From Archaeoglobaceae archaeon (GTDB lineage Archaea; Halobacteriota; Archaeoglobi; Archaeoglobales; Archaeoglobaceae), in assembly GCA_026988525.1 (NCBI GenBank), contig JALSLC010000006.1:123-64122 (forward strand): 64,000 nt of DNA. Reading direction: 5' to 3'. The translations under genes and the position numbers were made by a program. The notes beneath the pieces were generated by a model. The model ran no database searches. It had not been told where the DNA came from and worked only from the letters and a program-made list of their open reading frames with translations. Each line of letters opens with the position of its first letter. Position 1 is the first letter of the stretch. This document shows positions 18,510 to 37,519 of the stretch, piece after piece.

Positions 18510-18950
18510 ATGAAAGTTTGCATAGTTAGTTCTTGCCTTCTTGGATTGGCGTGTAGATACGACGGTAAAGCCTTCGTAGATTTAAGTGAGAATTTAAAAA
18601 GTAAGTACCTTATAGTACCAGTTTGTCCAGAACAGCTCTCGGGATTGCCAACACCAAGAGAGAAATGTGAAATTGTAGGCGGTGATGGTTTTGATGTTCT
18701 ATCAAATAGAGCCAAGGTAATGACCGAAAGTGGTAGAGATGTCACTGATGTGTTCATTAAAGGGGCCAAGATGACATTAAAAATATGCAAAATTACAAAC
18801 GCAAAAATTGCATTTTTAAAAGATTTTAGCCCCTCCTGCGGAGTAAAAAGTATATACAACGGGAGTTTTAGTGGAAAAAAAGTAAGAGGTGTAGGAGTTA
18901 CAACCGCTCTTTTAACTAAAAATAAAATAAAAGTAGAGAAAATTATTTAG
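18510..18950 (+). CDS. DUF523-family protein (thiouracil desulfurase-like)
   Basis: 'VSSCLLGLACRYDG' N-terminus and 'SPSCG' are typical of DUF523. 146 aa. Confidence 0.6.
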   Translation: MKVCIVSSCLLGLACRYDGKAFVDLSENLKSKYLIVPVCPEQLSGLPTPREKCEIVGGDGFDVLSNRAKVMTESGRDVTDVFIKGAKMTLKICKITNAKIAFLKDFSPSCGVKSIYNGSFSGKKVRGVGVTTALLTKNKIKVEKII

Positions 18951-19572
18951 TAGGTATTGGAAACTGCGGCGGGAATGGCTTGTGGTAGTAGTGTATTAGT
19001 ATAAAGTCATGACCGTGGCAATCTTGACAATCTACACCTTTTGGAGAGTGAATGATAAAAACATTACCGTGGCTTGGAGAGACTGGATTTGGATAACCAT
19101 GGCAAGCTCCACAGTCTCTCATATTTTCCGTAGAAATTGATTTGTGACATAAGGAACATTTTCCTTCTTTAGCCCAAGTCGTATTGTGATGTAAAGCTGC
19201 TAAATACTGATCAATTTGTTTCTTAGTTTTGTGTTTTACATTTGGAACGTGGCAATAGATACAATACTTTGTAGCATTTAAATGTCCTGGAATTTTATCT
19301 ACCTGCGGTATATACTGTGTTTTTGGATTGTAGTGGCAATCAAGACATTCTCCACCTATGGGTTTAGTTACATTAGTTATAGCAGCCTTAATAGTTTTAC
19401 TTGAAGTTTTGTTTACTTTGTTGATTGTAACTGGAGTTGGTGTTTTAACGGGTGTTTTAACCACACTTTTGTTAGTTGTCAAATTTGGATTTACTTTTTC
19501 TGTTTGAACACACATGCTTAAAGCTACAGCTAAGGTTAAAGTAATAACAATTAAAAAAATAATAGATCTCAT
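18943..19572 (-). CDS. secreted pentaheme c-type cytochrome
   Basis: N-terminal signal/anchor 'IIFLIVITLTLAVALSMC'. Five CXXCH sites: CLDCH, CIYCH, CSLCH, CGACH, CQDCH. Confidence 0.85.
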   Translation of the reverse strand: MRSIIFLIVITLTLAVALSMCVQTEKVNPNLTTNKSVVKTPVKTPTPVTINKVNKTSSKTIKAAITNVTKPIGGECLDCHYNPKTQYIPQVDKIPGHLNATKYCIYCHVPNVKHKTKKQIDQYLAALHHNTTWAKEGKCSLCHKSISTENMRDCGACHGYPNPVSPSHGNVFIIHSPKGVDCQDCHGHDFILIHYYHKPFPPQFPIPTK

Positions 19573-19576
19573 AGGC

Positions 19577-20188
19577 TTAAATTTGTCCCAGTTTTCCAGT
19601 TACTGGCTCATAAACTGGAATTGGCGTAGTTTTATTTACATACTGATCCGCAGCGCTGTGCAGCTGAGCTATTGGCTGAGTGTGGCAAGCTGTACAGTAA
19701 ACCCCCTTAGGCAAGTGCACTTCTACGTAGTTTGTAACAGGCTTAACGGGGTTCTTTGGATTGTGACAGAGCATACACGGTGATCCACCATTCGGAGCTT
19801 TTGGTATATGAACGTGTGTTCCAGTACCATGGCAAACAGAACACTGCAAGTTTATAGTTCCCGGTCCACAGTGTATCTTGTGTGGATCACTTCCATGACA
19901 CTTAGTACATCCATTTGGATCTTTGTGAGCTTGATAATCTGCGGCTTTAGTGTGACATAGTAAACAGTTAACTTTTGCGTTAGAGCTGGAAGTTGCAGCT
20001 TTAACAGTTTCAGTAGCAGTTGGAGTGGGTGTTGGAGTTGAAGTAGGTGCAACAGTTGGAGTTGCAGTTGGCGTAGCAGTAGGTGTAGTTTCAGGAGTTG
20101 CCTTTTGTTGCTGAGCACATCCAGCAACGAATCCAGATACCAATACAACCAATATTAACAACACAAACAACTTACTTTTCATTGTCAC
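19577..20188 (-). CDS. pentaheme c-type cytochrome, lipobox plus Thr/Pro-rich linker
   Basis: Signal with lipobox-like 'VSGFVAGC', linker 'TPETTPTATPTATPTVAPTSTPTPTPTAT'. Five CXXCH sites: CLLCH, CTKCH, CSVCH, CMLCH, CTACH. Confidence 0.85.
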   Translation of the reverse strand: MTMKSKLFVLLILVVLVSGFVAGCAQQQKATPETTPTATPTATPTVAPTSTPTPTPTATETVKAATSSSNAKVNCLLCHTKAADYQAHKDPNGCTKCHGSDPHKIHCGPGTINLQCSVCHGTGTHVHIPKAPNGGSPCMLCHNPKNPVKPVTNYVEVHLPKGVYCTACHTQPIAQLHSAADQYVNKTTPIPVYEPVTGKLGQI

Positions 20189-20448
20189 CCCTCCATTCCG
20201 GGTATTAGGATTTTAAAATAATAGTATATTTTAGTCTTTCGATTTTTAGAAATAAAAAAAGGAAAATTCTAACTTCTCAAAAATTTAAATTAGGTTTTAC
20301 CAGTGTTTTGGACAAAAACCATTTTACTGTTAAATTACCAAAACAAAATTGTAGATTATAAAATTATTCTAAATTATTAAAATGAAAAATTGGTAATTAG
20401 AATAATATCGTTAAGTCTATTAATACCAATGAGTTGTGAATTTCATAA

Positions 20449-21000
20449 ATGTTTCCCGAAATTGAAATGATCAAAATAAAAAGAAAAAGACTTGGATTAA
20501 CTCAAAAAAAATTGGCTGAATTAGTTGGAGTTAGTCAACCACTGATAGCAAGAATAGAATCTGGAGATTTTGATCCAAAGTTATCATTAATAAGGAAAAT
20601 ATTTAACGTTCTTGAAGAAGTAGAAGGTAAAGCGATAAATGCTGAAAAAATTATGAATTATCCCGTAAAAATAATCAATGCTAAAGCAAAGCTTATAGAT
20701 GCAGTAGAAACGATGATGAAACATGATATTTCACAAATGCCGGTAGTAAAAAAGGATGAAATAGTTGGTAGTATTACTGAAAGTAGCGTTGTTAAAATAA
20801 TGCTTGAAAAGGGAACCAATGCTGGCAAAACAAGAGTTGAAGAATGTATGGAACCACCATTTCCTATAGTTCCAAAACATGAACGCCTTAATACAATATC
20901 AAAACTTCTTCTAAACAGCCCAGCAGTAATAGTATGTGAGGAAAAAGAGATTTTAGGAATAATCACCAAACACGATGTTATGAAAGTAATAAAGTTTTAG
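20449..21000 (+). CDS. XRE-type HTH regulator fused to a CBS-domain pair
   Basis: 'LGLTQKKLAELVGVSQPLIARIESG' HTH, followed by two CBS-like repeats. Confidence 0.75.
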   Translation: MFPEIEMIKIKRKRLGLTQKKLAELVGVSQPLIARIESGDFDPKLSLIRKIFNVLEEVEGKAINAEKIMNYPVKIINAKAKLIDAVETMMKHDISQMPVVKKDEIVGSITESSVVKIMLEKGTNAGKTRVEECMEPPFPIVPKHERLNTISKLLLNSPAVIVCEEKEILGIITKHDVMKVIKF

Positions 21001-21039
21001 CGATAAATTAAAAACCCCTTTAAAAACAGAATATTTTTG

Positions 21040-22353
21040 ATGATTAAATTTGCACACATGGCAGACATACATCTTGGATATAAGCAGTATGGTAGTGATG
21101 AGAGAGCTATAGATTTTGCACAGGCATTTATGAAAGCCATAAAAAAAGCAGTAGCTGAAAAAGTAGATTTTATAATAATTGCTGGAGACTTATTTCATAA
21201 AAAAAGCGAAATGGATCCTCTCACATTAACTCAGGCAATAAAAGTGCTTGAAGTTGCAAAAAAAGAAAAAATACCTGTTATAGCTGTAGAGGGCAATCAT
21301 GATTCCGCTTACTTTAAAGAGACTTTCTCCTGGCTCGATTACTTATCTCAACAAGGATTGATTGTAAATTTAAAACCAAGGTTTGAAGAGGATATAGTTG
21401 TTGAGGAATGGGATGGAAAAAGTGGAGCATATATAGACCTTGATATTGGTGTTAGGATATACGGAATGAAATACTACGGTTCTATGACTGAAAAAGTCTT
21501 AGATATGTATTCTAAGAAGATTAAAAGGCTAAAAAATGGTCTTACAATTTTTACGGCACATGCTGGAGTCGAAGGTTATGTAAAAATATATGGTTGCATA
21601 CCATCAACAAGATTTCATAAGATAAATGCAGATTACATAGCTCTTGGACATATTCACAAGAGTTTTGTAGAAGGGAAGATACACAACCCCGGTAGCCTTG
21701 AAGTTTGCGATATAACTGAATTAAAATTTAAAAGAGGATTTTTTATAGTTGAATGGGATAAAGAAGTAAAATCAAACTTAGTAGAAGTAAAAGGTAGAGA
21801 GTTTCTAATCTTAGACTCAGAATTGAAGAGTGAAGAAGATGTTGTGAATTTTAAAAGAAAACTTTCAGAAGTAAAAATTAAAAGACCAGTAGTTTATATA
21901 AATATAAAATGTAGTAGAGATATAAAAAAACTGCTCTGCGATGATGAAATAAAGAAAATACTATCAAACGTTTCACCCATAGCACTAAAAATTAAATGGG
22001 AAATTTTCAATGAATTTACACCAATAAAGTCCTTTAAGAAAGAAGATATAGAATCTTATGTAATATCTCAAATATTAGAGAATTATAAATATGGAGATAT
22101 TAGCGAGGAAATAATAACTTTAAAAAATGCGTTTTGCGGTAAATTTGATTTAAAAAGAGTAGATGAGTTTATTGAAAGTATTCTGTTTTCAGAACAAAGA
22201 AAAAAAGTATCTGAAAAAGAAGTAAAAGAAGAAGTTAAGTCAAAAACAGAAAAAGAAATAGAAAAGTTGGAGAAAGAAAAGGAGGAAACAGAAGAAGATG
22301 TTTGGGATTGGAGGAAGGCTTATGCTCTTAGAAATAAGACTCGTAAACATTAA
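21040..22353 (+). CDS. mre11: DNA double-strand break repair nuclease Mre11
   Basis: Phosphoesterase motifs 'ADIHLG', 'AGDLFH', 'GNHD', 'GHIH'. Lys/Glu-rich tail. ATG at 21040. Confidence 0.9.
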   Translation: MIKFAHMADIHLGYKQYGSDERAIDFAQAFMKAIKKAVAEKVDFIIIAGDLFHKKSEMDPLTLTQAIKVLEVAKKEKIPVIAVEGNHDSAYFKETFSWLDYLSQQGLIVNLKPRFEEDIVVEEWDGKSGAYIDLDIGVRIYGMKYYGSMTEKVLDMYSKKIKRLKNGLTIFTAHAGVEGYVKIYGCIPSTRFHKINADYIALGHIHKSFVEGKIHNPGSLEVCDITELKFKRGFFIVEWDKEVKSNLVEVKGREFLILDSELKSEEDVVNFKRKLSEVKIKRPVVYINIKCSRDIKKLLCDDEIKKILSNVSPIALKIKWEIFNEFTPIKSFKKEDIESYVISQILENYKYGDISEEIITLKNAFCGKFDLKRVDEFIESILFSEQRKKVSEKEVKEEVKSKTEKEIEKLEKEKEETEEDVWDWRKAYALRNKTRKH

Positions 22354-24982
22354 AAGCCATGTAGATACTAAAATAAGGTTTACTGAAGGAGTAAATGCTA
22401 TTTTAGGAGAAAATGGAGCTGGAAAAACAACAATTATAGAAGCAATAGGATTCGCTCTTTTTAATGTAAAACCATACAAGAGAATCGGTGAATTTTTAAG
22501 AAGAGGTGAAAAGAAAGGTGAAATAAGAATAACTCTAAAAGGAAAAGACGATAGAGTTTATAGAGTAGTAAGAAAAATAGAAGAGAATAGAACAGCCGAA
22601 TACTATGTGGAAGATGTTGAACTTGGAAGAGTTGCAGAAGGAGAAAATGAAGTTCTGAGTTGGATAAAAGAGAACTTTGAATTTGAGAGTGATCCAAAAA
22701 CTATGTTTGATAATGTAATTGGAGTTAAACAGGGAATGATGACTTCTCAATTTTTAAATCCTCCAAATGTTAGAGAAGCTACATTTTCCCCAGTAATTGG
22801 AGTGGAAAGCTACAGAAAAGCTTACGAAAAAAGCAAAGATTATGAAAACTGGATAAAAGAAGAAATAGATAGAACTGCAATTGAGGAGGTAGAACTGAGA
22901 AACAAAGTTGAAAATTTAAGAAACAAAAAAATTGAACTTGAAAGATTAAGAAAACTGCAAGAGGAAATAGAAGAAGAAATGAACAAGATTTCAAATCAAA
23001 TAAAAATGTACGAAGTAAAATATAAAAAATTAGAAGAATTTAAAGAAAAAATTAGTAATTATAAGTTAAATTTTGAACTAACAAAAGATAAGATTGAATC
23101 GATTGAAAGTAAATTAAAAGAGTTAAAAGAAAGATTTGAAAGAGCGAAAGAAGCTGAGAAAAAATTAAATGAATTGAAGCCTATAGCAATCGAAGGAGAA
23201 AAAATAGAAGAAAGACTAGACAAACTTATTAAATTAAAGGACACACTGATTTCCGAGCTACATAATTTAAACATAAAAAAAGAAAAATTAGAGGAATATA
23301 AGAAAAGATTATCTGATTTAGAAGAAAAAGTTTCAGATATAAATGAAATAAAAGCTGAAGTTGAAAAATTGAGAGAGCTTGCAAAAATTGAAAGAGAGCT
23401 TGATGAACAATTAAAAAAACTGAGGGTTGCCGAAGAAAGAATTAAAGGATTATTAAATCAAAAATCTATTTTGAAAAAAGAAATTGATAGAAAAATAGAG
23501 AAAATTAAAAATAAAGATATAATTAAAAATGAAATTAAAAATTTGGAAGAAAAACTCGATAAGTTAAAAGATTTGGAAGATAAAAAAGAGAAAACTGTAA
23601 AAGCATACTATGCATTAGAAACGAAACTAAAACTTGATAAAGAGCAATTAAAAGAGATGTTAAAAGGTATATGCCCAATACTTGGAGAGGAATGTAAAAG
23701 AATTGCTGAGGCAGGTAGAAAAAAGAAGAAAGAATTGGAAAAAGAAGTGGAAAAAATAAAAGTTTTAAAAGCGAATATAGCTAAATTGGAAAAAGTTTTA
23801 TCAGCTAAAAAGGCTTTGGAAAATAAACTGTCTAATTTGAAATTGGAATTGTCATATATAGAAGAATTTGAAAAGGATGTTGAAGAGAAAAAGGAAAAGT
23901 TAAAAGAAATTACAAAGGAGTTAGAGATTTTAGAACGAAAAGTATCTAAAATTAACAAAGTCAAAGAAGAGTTTGATAAAGTTAGGGGATCTAGTAACAG
24001 ATTTGCAGAACTATCTGAAAGATTAAAACAAAAAGAAGAAATGTTGGAAGAAGTTGGAAACTTAAAATCGAAAATTGTAAGTTTAAGAGAAGAAATAAAA
24101 AAACTTCCAGAAGTAAATGAAAAACTAAAGGCTATAGAGCAAAACATAGTTGAGAACAAAGAAAAATTAAAGGAACTAAAACCTATACTGAATGAGTACG
24201 TTTCTCTAAAAACTATTGCAAATGAAAGAGATGAAATTGAAAGTAAGTTAAAAGAAAAAATAGAGGAGAAAAAAGCCTTAGAGGAGAAATATATAAAAAT
24301 AAAAAAAGAAATTGATGATATAAATAAAAAGTTTTCAGATGAAAAATATGAAAGAATTAAAAAGAAACTTGAGGATCTTAGAAGATCTTACTTCCAGTTA
24401 AAAGGTAGGTTGGATGAAATAAAAAACAGAATAGAATCTCTAACAAAAGATGTTCTTGAGCTTGAGAAAGAAGAGAAGAGGCTTGAAGAAGTTTTAAACA
24501 AAAAAAGGTTAGCGGAAAAGAAATATTTATTTATTAAAGATTTGCGAGAGATATTTAAGAAGGCAATTCCAGAGATAACTCGTGCATATACAGATGCTGT
24601 TTCAATTGAGGCTAATAGAATTTTTTGCGAACTAATGAACGACTATTCATGGGAAATAAGATGGACTAATGACTACTCAATAAAAGCAATTTATAGAGGC
24701 AGAGAAATTGATTTCTCTCAAATGAGTGGTGGAGAGCAAATGTGTGCAGCAATAGCAGTAAGATTGGCATTACTAAAAGTTCTATCCTCTACGAACATTG
24801 CGTTTTTTGATGAGCCCACCCAAAACATGGACGAAGTTAGAAGGAGGAATTTAGCCAACCAAATATCAAGAGTTGAAGGATTTAACCAAATATTTGTAAT
24901 AAGTCACGATGACAGTTTTGAGGATGTTGTAGAGAATGCTATTAAGTTAAAAAAAGAGGACGGTATCACCATAGTCGAGTGA
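22322..24982 (+). CDS. rad50: DNA double-strand break repair ATPase Rad50
   Basis: Walker A 'GENGAGKTT', about 600 aa of coiled coil, signature 'SGGEQ', Walker B 'IAFFDEPT'. Likely start 'MLLEIRLVNIKSH' overlaps the mre11 end. Confidence 0.9.
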   Translation: MLLEIRLVNIKSHVDTKIRFTEGVNAILGENGAGKTTIIEAIGFALFNVKPYKRIGEFLRRGEKKGEIRITLKGKDDRVYRVVRKIEENRTAEYYVEDVELGRVAEGENEVLSWIKENFEFESDPKTMFDNVIGVKQGMMTSQFLNPPNVREATFSPVIGVESYRKAYEKSKDYENWIKEEIDRTAIEEVELRNKVENLRNKKIELERLRKLQEEIEEEMNKISNQIKMYEVKYKKLEEFKEKISNYKLNFELTKDKIESIESKLKELKERFERAKEAEKKLNELKPIAIEGEKIEERLDKLIKLKDTLISELHNLNIKKEKLEEYKKRLSDLEEKVSDINEIKAEVEKLRELAKIERELDEQLKKLRVAEERIKGLLNQKSILKKEIDRKIEKIKNKDIIKNEIKNLEEKLDKLKDLEDKKEKTVKAYYALETKLKLDKEQLKEMLKGICPILGEECKRIAEAGRKKKKELEKEVEKIKVLKANIAKLEKVLSAKKALENKLSNLKLELSYIEEFEKDVEEKKEKLKEITKELEILERKVSKINKVKEEFDKVRGSSNRFAELSERLKQKEEMLEEVGNLKSKIVSLREEIKKLPEVNEKLKAIEQNIVENKEKLKELKPILNEYVSLKTIANERDEIESKLKEKIEEKKALEEKYIKIKKEIDDINKKFSDEKYERIKKKLEDLRRSYFQLKGRLDEIKNRIESLTKDVLELEKEEKRLEEVLNKKRLAEKKYLFIKDLREIFKKAIPEITRAYTDAVSIEANRIFCELMNDYSWEIRWTNDYSIKAIYRGREIDFSQMSGGEQMCAAIAVRLALLKVLSSTNIAFFDEPTQNMDEVRRRNLANQISRVEGFNQIFVISHDDSFEDVVENAIKLKKEDGITIVE

Positions 24983-33730: not shown

Positions 33731-33844
33731 TCACTTAAGTTTTTTCTCTATATCCATAGCTTTTTTCAATGTAATCAAAAACATAAGGAAAACTAACACC
33801 ATTACAACCATTACAGCTTCAAATACAGCTACAAAATCACTCAT
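33731..33844 (-). CDS. 37-aa single-TM ORF overlapping the ccmC stop (CcmD-like?); not in the ORF track
   Basis: Its ATG sits inside ...GAGTATGAGTGA, which contains the ccmC stop. Translation 'MSDFVAVFEAVMVVMVLVFLMFLITLKKAMDIEKKLK'. Confidence 0.4.
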   Translation of the reverse strand: MSDFVAVFEAVMVVMVLVFLMFLITLKKAMDIEKKLK

Positions 33845-34490
33845 ACTCCACCTCCATTTCAAGTTTTGTTAATTTTACATCCAATATCAAGAAAGATACG
33901 TACATCAACAAAAAGGACAGTATCATTGGTCCTAATGCCCTTCCTACATTAAAACCAATTTGTAGAGATTGTGTAGTTGGATGCAACGAAAAAAACATCT
34001 TAGCTGAAAGATAGCTTAATGGAATTGTTGTATAACATAATATAGCCAATATTGATGAAACTTTTGCTTTTTCTGCTGGATCTTCTATAGAGGATCTGAT
34101 TGCAAAGTAGGCTGCGTAAGCTGCCCATAATATAAGAACAGTTGTTTCTCTTGGGTCCCAATTCCAGTAAGCACCCCAAGCAGCTTTAGCCCATATGGAT
34201 CCACTTATCAACGCGGCAGTAATCATAAAAAATCCGGCTTTTGCAGATGAAACAGCTATAATGTCCCACTTTTCCTCTCTTTTTATTAAGTATAAAATAG
34301 CCATAACGAGAGTAACTGTAAAAGCTGTATAGGCTGTTATTGCTGAAGGTAAGTGGAAAAACAGTATTCTATAGTTGTTGTGCAGTATTGGTTCAACCGC
34401 TGGAGGTAATACGACCAATCCAATGTAAGATCCATAAGTAAAAAGTACAAAAGACAATACCATCAAAATCAAGGCTTTTTTCATGTCCAA
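33837..34490 (-). CDS. ccmC: cytochrome c maturation heme-handling protein CcmC
   Basis: Trp-rich signature 'WGAYWNWDPRETT' (WGxxWxWDxR), six TM segments, 217 aa. Confidence 0.85.
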   Translation of the reverse strand: MDMKKALILMVLSFVLFTYGSYIGLVVLPPAVEPILHNNYRILFFHLPSAITAYTAFTVTLVMAILYLIKREEKWDIIAVSSAKAGFFMITAALISGSIWAKAAWGAYWNWDPRETTVLILWAAYAAYFAIRSSIEDPAEKAKVSSILAILCYTTIPLSYLSAKMFFSLHPTTQSLQIGFNVGRALGPMILSFLLMYVSFLILDVKLTKLEMEVEYE

Positions 34491-34549: not shown

Positions 34550-34738
34550 TTAACATTCGTCGTGAGAGATTGCTTCATTTGGGCAACTTTCAACACAAGA
34601 GCAACAAACAGAGCAATTTTCCATGTTAACTGGTACAGATTTTCCTTCTTCATTTAGTTCAAAAACATCTTCTGGACAAACAGAAATACACTCACCACAG
34701 CCATCGCACTTGTCATGATCTACAACTATGTTCACCAT
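34550..34738 (-). CDS. 2x[4Fe-4S] ferredoxin
   Basis: 'CDGCGECISVCP' and 'CSVCCSCVESCP'. The ATG at 34738 is preceded by GGAGGTGG. Confidence 0.85.
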   Translation of the reverse strand: MVNIVVDHDKCDGCGECISVCPEDVFELNEEGKSVPVNMENCSVCCSCVESCPNEAISHDEC

Positions 34739-34827
34739 ACCTATACCACCTCCAATTAAAATCAAAGCAAACTCAATTTAAACCTTTTGATTTATAAGTT
34801 CAAAAAACTTAAAAATTAAGAAAAAAG

Positions 34828-35067
34828 TTAACCTTCAGCTCTCCTCTTTTCATATTCTTCGATGTATCTTGGAGTTGCGTAATACGTTGTTGAACCAGAA
34901 GACCAGTAGGCCGCTTTGCCCTCCTCTATTAGATCCATAACTATTTTTTGTACAACTTTTTTGTTCATTCTAAGAACTTTTGCAAGGTCTTTTATTTTCC
35001 ATAGCTTCTGATCCAATTTTTCAAGCACTTTTTGTTTATCTTCTTCTGTATATGTTATTTCAACCAT
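34828..35067 (-). CDS. dsrD: dissimilatory sulfite reductase-associated protein DsrD
   Basis: 79-aa winged-helix protein with the 'YWSSGSTTYY' DsrD signature, directly downstream of dsrB. Confidence 0.85.
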   Translation of the reverse strand: MVEITYTEEDKQKVLEKLDQKLWKIKDLAKVLRMNKKVVQKIVMDLIEEGKAAYWSSGSTTYYATPRYIEEYEKRRAEG

Positions 35068-35110
35068 TTATATCACCATTGATACTGTAATTCTAATGTA
35101 ATAAATAGTT

Positions 35111-36223
35111 TTACCATCTGAACTGTGTTCCCACTCTGTATGATGCATACATGAATGGGGGTATTCTGAAGTCGTCAATTAAATGCCATGAGAACTCAAG
35201 TCCAGCAAGCTCGAAGAATCTTTCCCAGCCTATCCTCTCTATGAACTCAACCATTCTCTCATGCTTCTTAGCGTTGTTCGCCCAAGCCATAAATATCTGC
35301 TTAATCTTTTCTACGAGAGTTGGCCATCTCGGTGGTTCATTTGGTACCCATGGTACAACTACCTTAGATAACTCTGGCGGATGTCTTGCATCAGAAACTT
35401 TACCAGCACAGAGTATAGCAGCACCGTCATTCTCTGGATCGAATAGAGGCATACCCGGACACATTGTGTAACAGTTACCGCAGTACATGCACTTTTCTCC
35501 ATCAACTTCAAGTGTCTTCTCCTTTGCCTTAACTTTTATTGCAGCGGTTGGACAAGCTGCAGCAGTTGAAGGTAATTCACACATTCTTCTAACTGCATCA
35601 TCATCTACGAGTGGTGGTGTTCTGTGAATACCAACTATTGATATATCAGATGCGTGAACAGCTCCACACATGTTAGCACAGCAGGCAAGGCTTATTCTGC
35701 ACAATCCCGGCAATTTCATGTCAACGAAGTACTCATAGAGTTCATCCATAATGGCTTTAACAATACCGGAAGCATCAATAGCTGGAGTGTGGCAGTGTAT
35801 CCATCCCTGAGTGTGTATTATGTTAGTTAAACCATACTTACCTTTCGGAGTGTCCCAAGTACCACCACATGGAAATCCTACTTTTTCTTCTACTTCTTTT
35901 ATAAGGTCATCTATCTTGCTCTCATCAGTCAATATGAACTCAACATTGTGTCTGCTTGTCCATCTCAAGTAACCGTCACAGTACTTGTCTGCGATGTCAC
36001 AAAGCTCTCTGATGGTATAGATGCTTATAAGTCTTGGGGTACCAAATCTTACAACGTAAACTACATCTCCACTTTCAGCCACTCTCTTTATTACACCCGG
36101 TCTTATAACTTCATGGTAGGCCCACTTTCCATAGTTCTTCTTTAATACAGGGTGCATTAAATCTTTAAAGTATGGTGGCCCAAAATCAGTCTTCCACCAA
36201 GGAGGTTTCTCCTGCTGCTGCAT
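35111..36223 (-). CDS. dsrB: dissimilatory sulfite reductase beta subunit
   Basis: 'GWIHCHTP', '[20 protein letters not shown]', and ferredoxin insert 'CPTAAI...[12 protein letters not shown]'. Abuts dsrA with no gap. Confidence 0.95.
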
Positions 36224-37519
36224 TTAAATCTCCTCCCCCTCATATTCAAATGATCTCCACTTCATACCCCTCTCCTTAAGCTTCTTAACAACTTCCGATT
36301 CTACAAGTTCTTCTTCCTTGAAGAACATGAACGGGTTAGTTCTTGGATGCTTGATCATTCTTACATCAGCTTCCTGTCCTATAACATTCAAGAATTCTCC
36401 AATACCTCTTCTCCATATTAGTTCTCCTACTCTCTCTCTGAACTTGCCTATGTCGTCCCACCATTCCCAGATCTTTTCAGCTATTTCACAGAGTGTGTCA
36501 AATAGCTCATCAGCCGGTATGAATGGTACAGCAACCCATCCTATTATTGCACCTTCTACGAATGGAGCCTTAGCACCAATAAGAACTGTTGCTCCTCTCT
36601 CCTTACCCGGCTTGAGAGCCTTAGGCATTTTGTTTATACAGTGCATACATCTTACACAATTTGAGTTGTCAATCTTGATTTCCTTCTTTTCTGCATCGTA
36701 GCTTATAGCTCCAGTTGGACAAAGCTTAACTACTTCCTCTTCTATGTCCATCCACTCTGCATATTCTTTAACTGCATCCTGATCAATCTGTATTTCGCCC
36801 TTCCAAGTTCCAATAACTGCACAATCTGCTCTTGCCTTAGCAGCTACACAGTCGTTGGGGCAGCCAGAGAATTTAAACTTGAACTTGTATGGCCACATTG
36901 GTCTGTGCAATTCATTCTGGAACTCCATAGTTATGTCATGGCAAATTTGTAGAGTGTCATAACATGCAAATTCACAGAGAGCTGGACCCATGCATGCTGA
37001 AGGAGTTCTCAAGTCTGAACCAGAACCACCAATATCGAATGGTGGGTCCAATTTCATCATATCTTCGAAGCAAGGCTGTAAGTATTCACTCTTTGTACCA
37101 AGAAGAATTATATCTCCAGTTGATCCGTGGAAGTTCGTAATACCACTACCCCACTTCTCCCATACATCCATAAGCTGTCTGAGAGCTTTAGTAGAATAGA
37201 ACCATCCACTTGGCATGTTTACACGTATTGTGTGGAAGTGGTGTACCTCAGGCACAATATCTTCAAGATCAGAATATCTACCTATAACTCCACCACCATA
37301 ACCAACAACTGAAACTATACCACCATGTTTCCAGTGTGTTTTCTTATCTTTGTAACTAATCTCAATCTGTTTCAAAAGAGCTCTTGCAGAGCCGGGCATC
37401 TTTATATCCTTACCCTCAGCAACAGCCTTGTCCTGTAATTCAGCAGTCTTCTTAATTTCTTTTACAAAACTAGGCCAAGGCCCATCAGGAATTTGGTCAA
37501 GCAAAGGTGTTTCTGACAA
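36224..37519 (-). CDS. dsrA: dissimilatory sulfite reductase alpha subunit
   Basis: '[16 protein letters not shown]' N-terminus, siroheme/cluster cysteines '[11 protein letters not shown]' and '[10 protein letters not shown]', ferredoxin insert 'CPTGAI...[12 protein letters not shown]'. TTG start after GGAGGTGAG. Confidence 0.95.

Follow-up and report, generated by a model that had tools for sequence, protein, structure and literature searches.

What use would an archaeon with a full sulfate-reduction genotype have for two very small, haem-dense cytochromes that are predicted to leave the cytoplasm? The question is raised by a stretch of 64,000 nucleotides (nt; hereafter the window, contig JALSLC010000006.1 of assembly GCA_026988525.1) from a member of the Archaeoglobaceae, in which two adjacent genes on the minus strand, here called cytA and cytB, encode pentahaem c-type cytochrome precursors. 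The reading that we favour, and regard as probable, is that the pair provides a membrane-tethered electron relay belonging to an accessory extracellular electron-transfer apparatus of this family. It builds on what is directly observed, namely the genes with their motifs, paralogy and conservation, the maturation genes of the host, and the co-occurrence and linkage of the pair with other redox genes.

Two paralogous pentahaem proteins

The two open reading frames (ORFs) are separated by 4 nt (19573-19576), with cytB downstream of cytA, and their coordinates and lengths (Table 1) agree with those of an earlier note on this DNA. They are probably co-transcribed and, given this gap, possibly translationally coupled. 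Because a Shine-Dalgarno-like GGAGGG lies directly against the GTG of cytA, and relatives carry an ATG at the GTG position (ATGACAATG), the true start of cytA is probably the ATG at 20182 (MKSKLF..., 201 aa). Each translation holds five CXXCH haem-binding motifs and no more, as the note had claimed (CLLCH, CTKCH, CSVCH, CMLCH and CTACH in CytA; CLDCH, CIYCH, CSLCH, CGACH and CQDCH in CytB). Following a genome-wide count that the note had proposed as a check, only 10 ORFs with at least two such motifs were found when the entire genome (1.43 Mb) was scanned in six frames, and frames with five motifs are therefore not chance occurrences. The G+C content at third codon positions (GC3) is 0.29 for cytA, 0.25 for cytB and 0.22-0.36 in neighbouring genes; recent horizontal transfer of the pair is unsupported, its GC3 being native.

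On inspection, both N-termini show positive charge followed by a hydrophobic helix, the mark of an export signal, and both signals end in a cysteine (...GFVAGC in CytA, ...ALSMC in CytB), also as described earlier. The end of the CytA signal, V-A-G-C, satisfies the lipobox pattern [LVI][ASTVI][GAS]C, and its Gly-Cys is invariant among orthologues (here and below, invariance was judged on alignments of 20 orthologues per protein from at least eight genera). The linker between the lipobox and the first haem motif, whose residues 29-60 are indeed of the TPTATPT type reported in the note, measures 42-62 residues in all orthologues, with its composition kept and its sequence free. Within the haem domain, five histidines beyond the motifs are invariant (H86, H101, H104, H156 and H175, numbered from the ATG at 20182), a number that fits five haems with bis-His ligation. 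Compared with the orthologues of Geoglobus and Ferroglobus, CytA has here an extra C-terminal tail of about 20 residues. An ...AGC N-terminus is also found on about 14 other predicted exported proteins of the genome. Only one other protein joins an ...AGCAQQ lipobox to a Thr/Pro linker of this kind, the 391-aa product of C38:12151-13326(-), which on sequence inspection resembles a solute-binding protein; apart from it, about 14 ORFs have the lipobox but no such linker.

CytB departs from this pattern at two points. Its signal ends at an invariant Cys21, where position -1 is mostly M or L, and G in one orthologue, so that the canonical G/A/S at lipobox -1 is not found in its L-S-M-C. Beyond the motifs, four histidines are invariant (H97, H128, H175 and H194), and neither a fifth invariant histidine nor any invariant methionine occurs among the 20 orthologues; one CytB haem would therefore be without a conserved sixth ligand. 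The linker varies between 26 and 56 residues across orthologues while its composition is kept. The proline-rich C-terminal tail, kept in the host's own genus and in the genus labelled g17 in our survey, is variable in other genera, with P201 invariant, and is possibly a docking peptide. N-glycosylation sequons (N-x-S/T) number six in CytB of this genus, against 0-3 elsewhere.

That the two proteins are true paralogues is confirmed by sequence comparison. BLASTP aligns CytA with CytB at 27% identity (E 8e-11), and a profile-profile comparison of the two families by HHalign gives a probability of 99.4% (E 2e-21), spanning the signal, the linker and the five haem sites. The block H(L/S)PKGV.C..CH, from which the note had argued for paralogy, is present in both (HLPKGVYCTACH in CytA, HSPKGVDCQDCH in CytB). 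Electrostatic complementarity between A and B was considered as a candidate feature and rejected, because the two haem domains change net charge in step: in this genus both are basic, and in genome G049 of genus g13 both stand at about -12 to -14.

To which known cytochromes are they closest? In Pfam, both proteins match only the c7 and class III (c3) families over cut-off, and marginally so: Cytochrome_C7 (PF14522; cut-off 24.8 bits) scores 26.3 for CytA and 27.8 for CytB, and Cytochrom_CIII (PF02085; cut-off 22.9) scores 23.5 and 26.3, respectively. Pfam PF27998 is precomputed on some homologues. The NrfB-like model PF22678 matches neither protein at E up to 1, no meaningful NCBIfam match was found for either, and the filament cytochromes in the PDB (8e5g, 8e5f, OmcS, OmcE and OmcZ) match neither; of the families that the note had listed for a homology search (NrfB, OmcS-like, c7-type), the c7 type gave matches, at marginal scores. 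The pair resembles cytochromes c7 and c3 and the GSU1996 polymer in haem density, in these Pfam matches and, for CytA with its five invariant extra histidines, in a likely bis-His ligation, for which CytB has only four such histidines; it differs in having five haems within about 130 residues, against three (c7) or four (c3) per domain, in being apparently tethered rather than soluble, and in scores that barely pass the cut-offs. Like NrfB of the E. coli type it would be a small pentahaem electron shuttle, but it fails the NrfB-like model and no nrfA lies nearby. The best PDB matches of the CytA profile are ActA subunits (8k9e, E 8.5e-5; 6btm, 1.6e-4; 6lod, 3.4e-4; 6f0k, 6e-3), each over short two-motif stretches, and weak, short matches are also made to the c7-type domains of GSU1996 (3ouq, 3ov0); the solved sequences closest to CytA thus appear to be electron-wire subunits. 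CytB has nothing significant in the PDB, with ActA only at E 0.62.

Distribution, nanowire genes and haem maturation

The family survey covered 92 Archaeoglobaceae genomes in 18 genera, with thresholds of E <1e-30 for cytA and <1e-20 for cytB. Orthologues of cytA (45-92% identity) were found in 35 genomes and of cytB in 36, and the pair is counted in 36 of the 92 genomes and in nine of the 18 genera, always adjacent and always A then B. The A-B gap is at most 40 nt in all genera inspected and the flanking genes differ between genera: here the pair lies between a string of XRE/CBS, mre11 and rad50 genes and a DUF523-phosphoesterase-gatD group, and in Ferroglobus placidus, Geoglobus ahangari and genera g14, g16 and g17 it is flanked by different, unrelated housekeeping genes. 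A conserved order with changing flanks indicates that the pair is a self-contained module. Among complete genomes, it is carried by F. placidus (G036, 2,196,266 bp; Ferp_1813 and its downstream neighbour), G. ahangari (G041, 1,770,093 bp) and Archaeoglobus veneficus (G028), the last of which encodes the chain of 8e5g, a match that holds over the stretch compared.

Is such a pair out of place in a sulfate reducer? The note had called it not expected for a classical Archaeoglobus. This is a fair description, as none of the 46 genomes in three large genera (g2, g3 and g18) has the pair, and g2 is presumed to be of the A. fulgidus type. A caveat is that further Archaeoglobaceae with dsr genes carry the pair, A. 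veneficus among them.

Beyond the family, a word-indexed search yielded 14 clusters for CytA and 15 for CytB out of 5.8 billion proteins; the search with full-length CytA was swamped by its Thr/Pro linker, and the haem domain alone added one sequence. With phmmer, the haem domain found 30 clusters at E up to 1e-3 among 1.84 billion representatives, one of them holding Ferp_1813 and another proteins from metagenome-assembled genomes (MAGs) of Methanosarcinales. Distant CytA-like haem domains also occur fused to, or beside, very large NosD/beta-helix surface proteins, as single genes rather than in tandem: a 503-aa metagenomic protein (P0034) carries a C-terminal extension of about 350 aa, and at another locus (L036 1-5666) the neighbour is a beta-helix protein that exceeds 2,400 aa.

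Orthologues were listed in genome papers of 2015, so that this is an already catalogued, uncharacterised gene pair. In G. ahangari, GAH_01235 and GAH_01236 appear as 'hypothetical' putative c-type cytochromes with 5 haems, of 21.5 and 22.3 kDa (PMC4600277, Table 6), and Mardanov 2015, cited through PMC4683180, counts gace_1360-1361 among four cytochrome clusters proposed to reduce Fe(III). The GAH and GACE tags were matched to the pair by genome position only. In Methanoperedens, MPEBLZ_01329, a homologue of Ferp_1813/GACE_1361, is highly transcribed, with an RPKM value of 1739 (PMC4683180). The association with iron-reducing Archaeoglobales and Methanoperedens drawn in the note thus holds at the level of homology. 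The Geoglobus and Ferroglobus pairs (45-52% identity for A, 39-45% for B) share with the present one the A-then-B order, five CXXCH in each protein, and the lipobox and linker; they differ in that the host here has a sulfate-reducer genotype, a 1.43-Mb genome and 35% G+C.

Across the survey, the pair goes together with homologues of 8e5g, the nanowire subunit AvECN of A. veneficus: both are present in 31 genomes and both absent from 54, five genomes have the pair without a homologue, two the reverse, and the seven genomes that disagree are all MAGs, with completeness estimated at 76-95%. In the two genera of mixed presence (g4 and g12), seven genomes have both, two only the pair, none only the ECN homologue and nine neither. 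These counts, not corrected for phylogeny, are suggestive of joint gain and loss. In the host genome, a 270-aa tetrahaem protein matches 8e5g at E 2e-58 and has two paralogues that share its N-terminus (MPQTASLFAGQHWWYNISG) and carry 5 and 3 CXXCH, the trihaem one encoded directly upstream of a nine-haem gene (Table 1); besides these three, its other cytochromes are two nine-haem proteins, one further pentahaem and DsrJ. AvECN has four haems, polymerises, is without a lipobox and has no detectable similarity to CytA or CytB, yet it is encoded in the same genomes, and a paralogue of it adjoins the pair in A. veneficus and in genomes G027 and G019; it is likely a downstream partner of the pair.

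Linkage to further cytochrome and Fe-S genes is seen in three genera, with the Fe-S gene in g5 and g13. A. veneficus, genomes G049 and G052 and one metagenomic locus (L035) have a string consisting of a tetrahaem anchored by a transmembrane (TM) helix (147-158 aa), a 4Fe-4S protein of NrfC/DsrO type of about 243 aa with a twin-arginine translocation (Tat) signal (RREFIK), cytA and cytB; in G026 the Fe-S gene stands directly before cytA, where the contig is cut. A divergent gene pair encoding an ECN-like trihaem and a nine-haem protein abuts the module in A. veneficus and G027, and in G019 fragments of such genes, together with another pentahaem, lie on the same strand as the pair. The nine-haem and ECN-like ORFs of G019, a MAG of 72% completeness, are fragmented and may be frameshifted; its pentahaem ORF (183 aa; L037 2515-3066, G019:C61), directly upstream of cytA, has no BLAST similarity to cytA or cytB.

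Could the host load these proteins with haem? The note had named the absence of a complete cytochrome c maturation (ccm) system as the finding that would refute it, and this refutation fails, since CcmA, B, C, E and F are all encoded in the genome (G000; 1,432,966 bp in 39 contigs, 34.8% G+C, 99.8% complete). The gene ccmC, directly downstream of dsrA-dsrB-dsrD-ferredoxin on the same strand, is in the window; ccmE (with the motif CPSKY, of the archaeal CxxxY type) and ccmF (614 aa, with WGGYWGWDPVEN) are on another contig, and ccmB adjoins the gene of an ABC ATPase (ccmA) on a third. CcmH is absent from the ccm set of this genome, and a System I variant without CcmH is usual in archaea (PMC4600277, PMC4429474). 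Judged by gene content, maturation of holo-CytA and holo-CytB is thus possible with what is a full archaeal ccm set.

Upstream of cytA, five genomes of the genus share an almost unchanged block of about 68 nt, in contrast to the remainder of the 260-nt spacer to the next gene, which has diverged; the block is read as the pair's own promoter, from its putative elements (Table 1). An Rfam scan of the window found no RNA family, and repeats in the spacer amount to weak AT-rich matches only. The next gene, of XRE-CBS type, is divergent and starts 260 nt from cytA, exactly as the note had it, but a role as a dedicated regulator of the pair is ruled out: it leads a string that continues with mre11 and rad50 (37 nt separate its stop codon from mre11, and at locus L005 there is a 4-nt overlap), its orthologues are spread over the family and reach genomes devoid of the pair (G001, G017), and in A. 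veneficus, F. placidus and G. ahangari it is found 270-510 kb away from the cytochrome genes. This suggests a regulator linked to DNA repair.

Table 1. Coordinates of the pair, of its neighbours in the window, and of related genes and loci elsewhere (unprefixed positions refer to the window; C, contig of the host genome unless preceded by another genome; L, locus).
Feature	Position	Strand	Description
cytA	19577-20188	-	pentahaem c-type cytochrome precursor; 203 aa from GTG
cytA signal peptide	20117-20188	-	lipobox V-A-G-C, ends at Cys24 (GTG numbering)
cytA linker	19973-20116	-	Thr/Pro/Ala-rich, flexible; lipobox Cys to first haem motif, ~50 residues
cytA haem domain	19580-19972	-	~130 aa; five CXXCH and five invariant extra His
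cytB	18943-19572	-	paralogous pentahaem c-type cytochrome precursor; 209 aa
cytB signal peptide	19510-19572	-	ends at invariant Cys21 (A-L-S-M-C; non-canonical lipobox)
cytB haem domain	18946-19356	-	five CXXCH, four invariant extra His, C-terminal tail PFPPQFPIP
Conserved upstream block	20183-20250	-	putative B recognition element (BRE)/TATA promoter AAATCGAAAGACTAAAATATACT and Shine-Dalgarno-like GGAGGG
XRE-CBS gene	20449-21000	+	XRE (HTH_3) with 2xCBS
XRE-CBS, mre11, rad50 string	20449-24982	+	
ccmC	33837-34490	-	PF01578, 120 bits; haem-handling subunit of cytochrome c maturation System I
dsrA-dsrB-dsrD-ferredoxin	34550-37519	-	
ccmE, ccmF	C35:22288-24554		
ccmB, ccmA	C9:57161-58506		
8e5g homologue	C7:5328-6140	+	tetrahaem
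Paralogue of 8e5g homologue	C30:22000-22824	-	5 CXXCH
Paralogue of 8e5g homologue	C25:23501-24190	-	3 CXXCH
Nine-haem gene	C25:22188-23504		
Four-gene string	L029 4723-7230		A. veneficus, G028:C1 ~622.2-624.7 kb
Four-gene string	L034 6136-8671		
Four-gene string	L042 4380-6911		
Four-gene string	L035 4618-7163		metagenome

A proposed tethered relay and its alternatives

How might such a relay work? Both proteins would be exported by Sec, loaded with haem by CcmABCEF and kept at the outer surface of the cytoplasmic membrane. An archaeol thioether-linked to the lipobox cysteine would anchor CytA, behind the flexible Thr/Pro linker; experiments in Haloferax have established lipidation of archaeal lipoboxes (PMC12462473). 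For CytB, attachment would be through the invariant cysteine or an uncleaved signal anchor, behind a similar spacer. In each case a haem domain of c7/c3 type, with about 25 residues per haem, would swing on a spacer of about 50 residues, which by a rough estimate from the residue count could reach some 10-15 nm when fully extended. Such low-potential relays in the quasi-periplasmic space may receive electrons from redox proteins that are membrane-bound or exported by Tat: the donors would be, in some genera, the membrane-anchored tetrahaem and the NrfC/DsrO-like Fe-S protein of the same gene string, and in the present genome DsrMKJOP is one, speculative, candidate. The electrons would then be passed on to larger outer cytochromes and to the AvECN-type filaments of the same genomes. 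The proposed lipidation, redox partners and direction of electron flow all carry this conditional standing.

Several points weigh against this proposal. CytB has neither a canonical lipobox nor a conserved sixth ligand for one of its haems, and could have another role. The AlphaFold2 models, with mean pLDDT of 42.5 (CytA) and 47.0 (CytB) from family alignments of 14 and 15 sequences, are too poor to use, so that the fold rests on weak sequence matches (E 1e-4 to 1e-2). In the host genome itself, the pair adjoins no redox partner, and neither an NrfH-like tetrahaem nor a second NrfC-like gene was found. The co-occurrence with nanowire genes lacks phylogenetic independence, and a shared 'cytochrome-rich' lifestyle alone may account for it. 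Finally, the host has the full sulfate-reduction genotype (sat with aprA beside it, dsrABD, and dsrOPMKJ, whose DsrJ is trihaem), and a lifestyle based on intracellular acceptors would not need the pair.

A more specific form of the same proposal, in which CytA and CytB together make a lipid-tethered, ten-haem 'swinging' relay from the menaquinol/DsrMKJOP side to AvECN-type filaments in a sulfate reducer, is offered tentatively, as we judge it a good deal less likely than the general one. In such a unit, the ligand-deficient haem of CytB might be completed by a residue of its partner.

Could the two proteins instead be fixed parts of a larger machine? As ActA-like haem-wire subunits, they would serve a quinol-oxidising complex that also contains an Fe-S protein of NrfC/DsrO type and a membrane subunit of NrfD/DsrP type. 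In the PDB, the best profile matches are indeed to ActA of Alternative Complex III, a membrane-anchored protein of about 200 aa whose five c-type haems act as a wire beside an NrfC-type Fe-S module, features that the pair would share; moreover, in g5 and g13 the pair is co-oriented directly behind the Tat-exported 4Fe-4S protein and, where the contig permits, the membrane tetrahaem. However, the similarity is marginal (E 1e-4 to 6e-3, two haem motifs in each stretch), the predicted anchor is a lipobox with a linker rather than a TM helix, and a flexible linker of this length suits a mobile domain on a tether better than it suits a rigid subunit. No NrfD-like membrane subunit adjoins the pair in any locus inspected, and no ActB-ActF gene lies beside it in the window or in 15 related loci, where only the NrfC-like Fe-S gene was found, in g5 and g13; the pair has only housekeeping genes around it in six genera, that of the host among them. 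On present evidence, the pair is not a member of the ActA family, and a fixed role of this kind is unlikely.

Somewhat less probable still is a periplasmic hub, in which the pair would act like the type I cytochrome c3 of Desulfovibrio and collect electrons from an exported hydrogenase or formate dehydrogenase for delivery to DsrMKJOP or another sulfate-reduction complex. The matches to Pfam class III (c3) over cut-off, the dsr, sat and aprA genes of the host with its trihaem DsrJ, and the position of ccmC beside dsrABD all speak for it. Orthologues are nevertheless found in Geoglobus, which is without some genes of dissimilatory sulfate reduction (PMC4600277), and are missing from the 46 genomes of g2, g3 and g18 (a comparison blind to the dsr content of those genomes); the pair therefore does not track dsr-based respiration.

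Might CytB be a small haem enzyme or a sensor of a ligand such as nitrite, sulfite, polysulfide or peroxide, with CytA as its electron donor? Its four invariant histidines outside the motifs, against five in CytA, and its want of an invariant methionine would suit a haem with a free site. However, CytB contains no CXXCK or other known catalytic haem motif and matches no enzyme family of Pfam or NCBIfam, an extra histidine (H129) is at hand in its own genus, and the missing ligand could come from a non-conserved position or from the partner protein, all of which makes this role improbable. That the genes are chance ORFs or decaying is effectively refuted by ten haem motifs and ligand histidines invariant across at least eight genera, by intact frames, by a conserved promoter block and by native GC3.

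Electron exchange in the Archaeoglobaceae

How do electrons cross from the archaeal membrane, through the space beneath the S-layer, to filaments or minerals? The roles of AvECN and PcECN have been called an outstanding challenge (PMC12954529). Of the cytochrome units that accompany nanowire genes in the Archaeoglobaceae, the pair is the smallest and the most constant in its conservation, and therefore a tractable, easily expressed candidate for the membrane-proximal step, the step that we assign to a tethered relay. If the ten-haem form of this relay holds, a small-genome member of the family could draw on a single quasi-periplasmic pool of haems both for sulfate reduction and for extracellular electron exchange, and the exchange could be uptake from conductive chimney minerals or direct interspecies transfer. 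Strain SR50 also combines dsr genes with a multihaem apparatus (PMC13560653), and so does A. veneficus. The presence of the pair and of three homologues of the nanowire subunit in a genome fully equipped for sulfate reduction adds to the signs, given also by these two organisms, that electron exchange through cytochromes extends beyond the iron-reducing genera.

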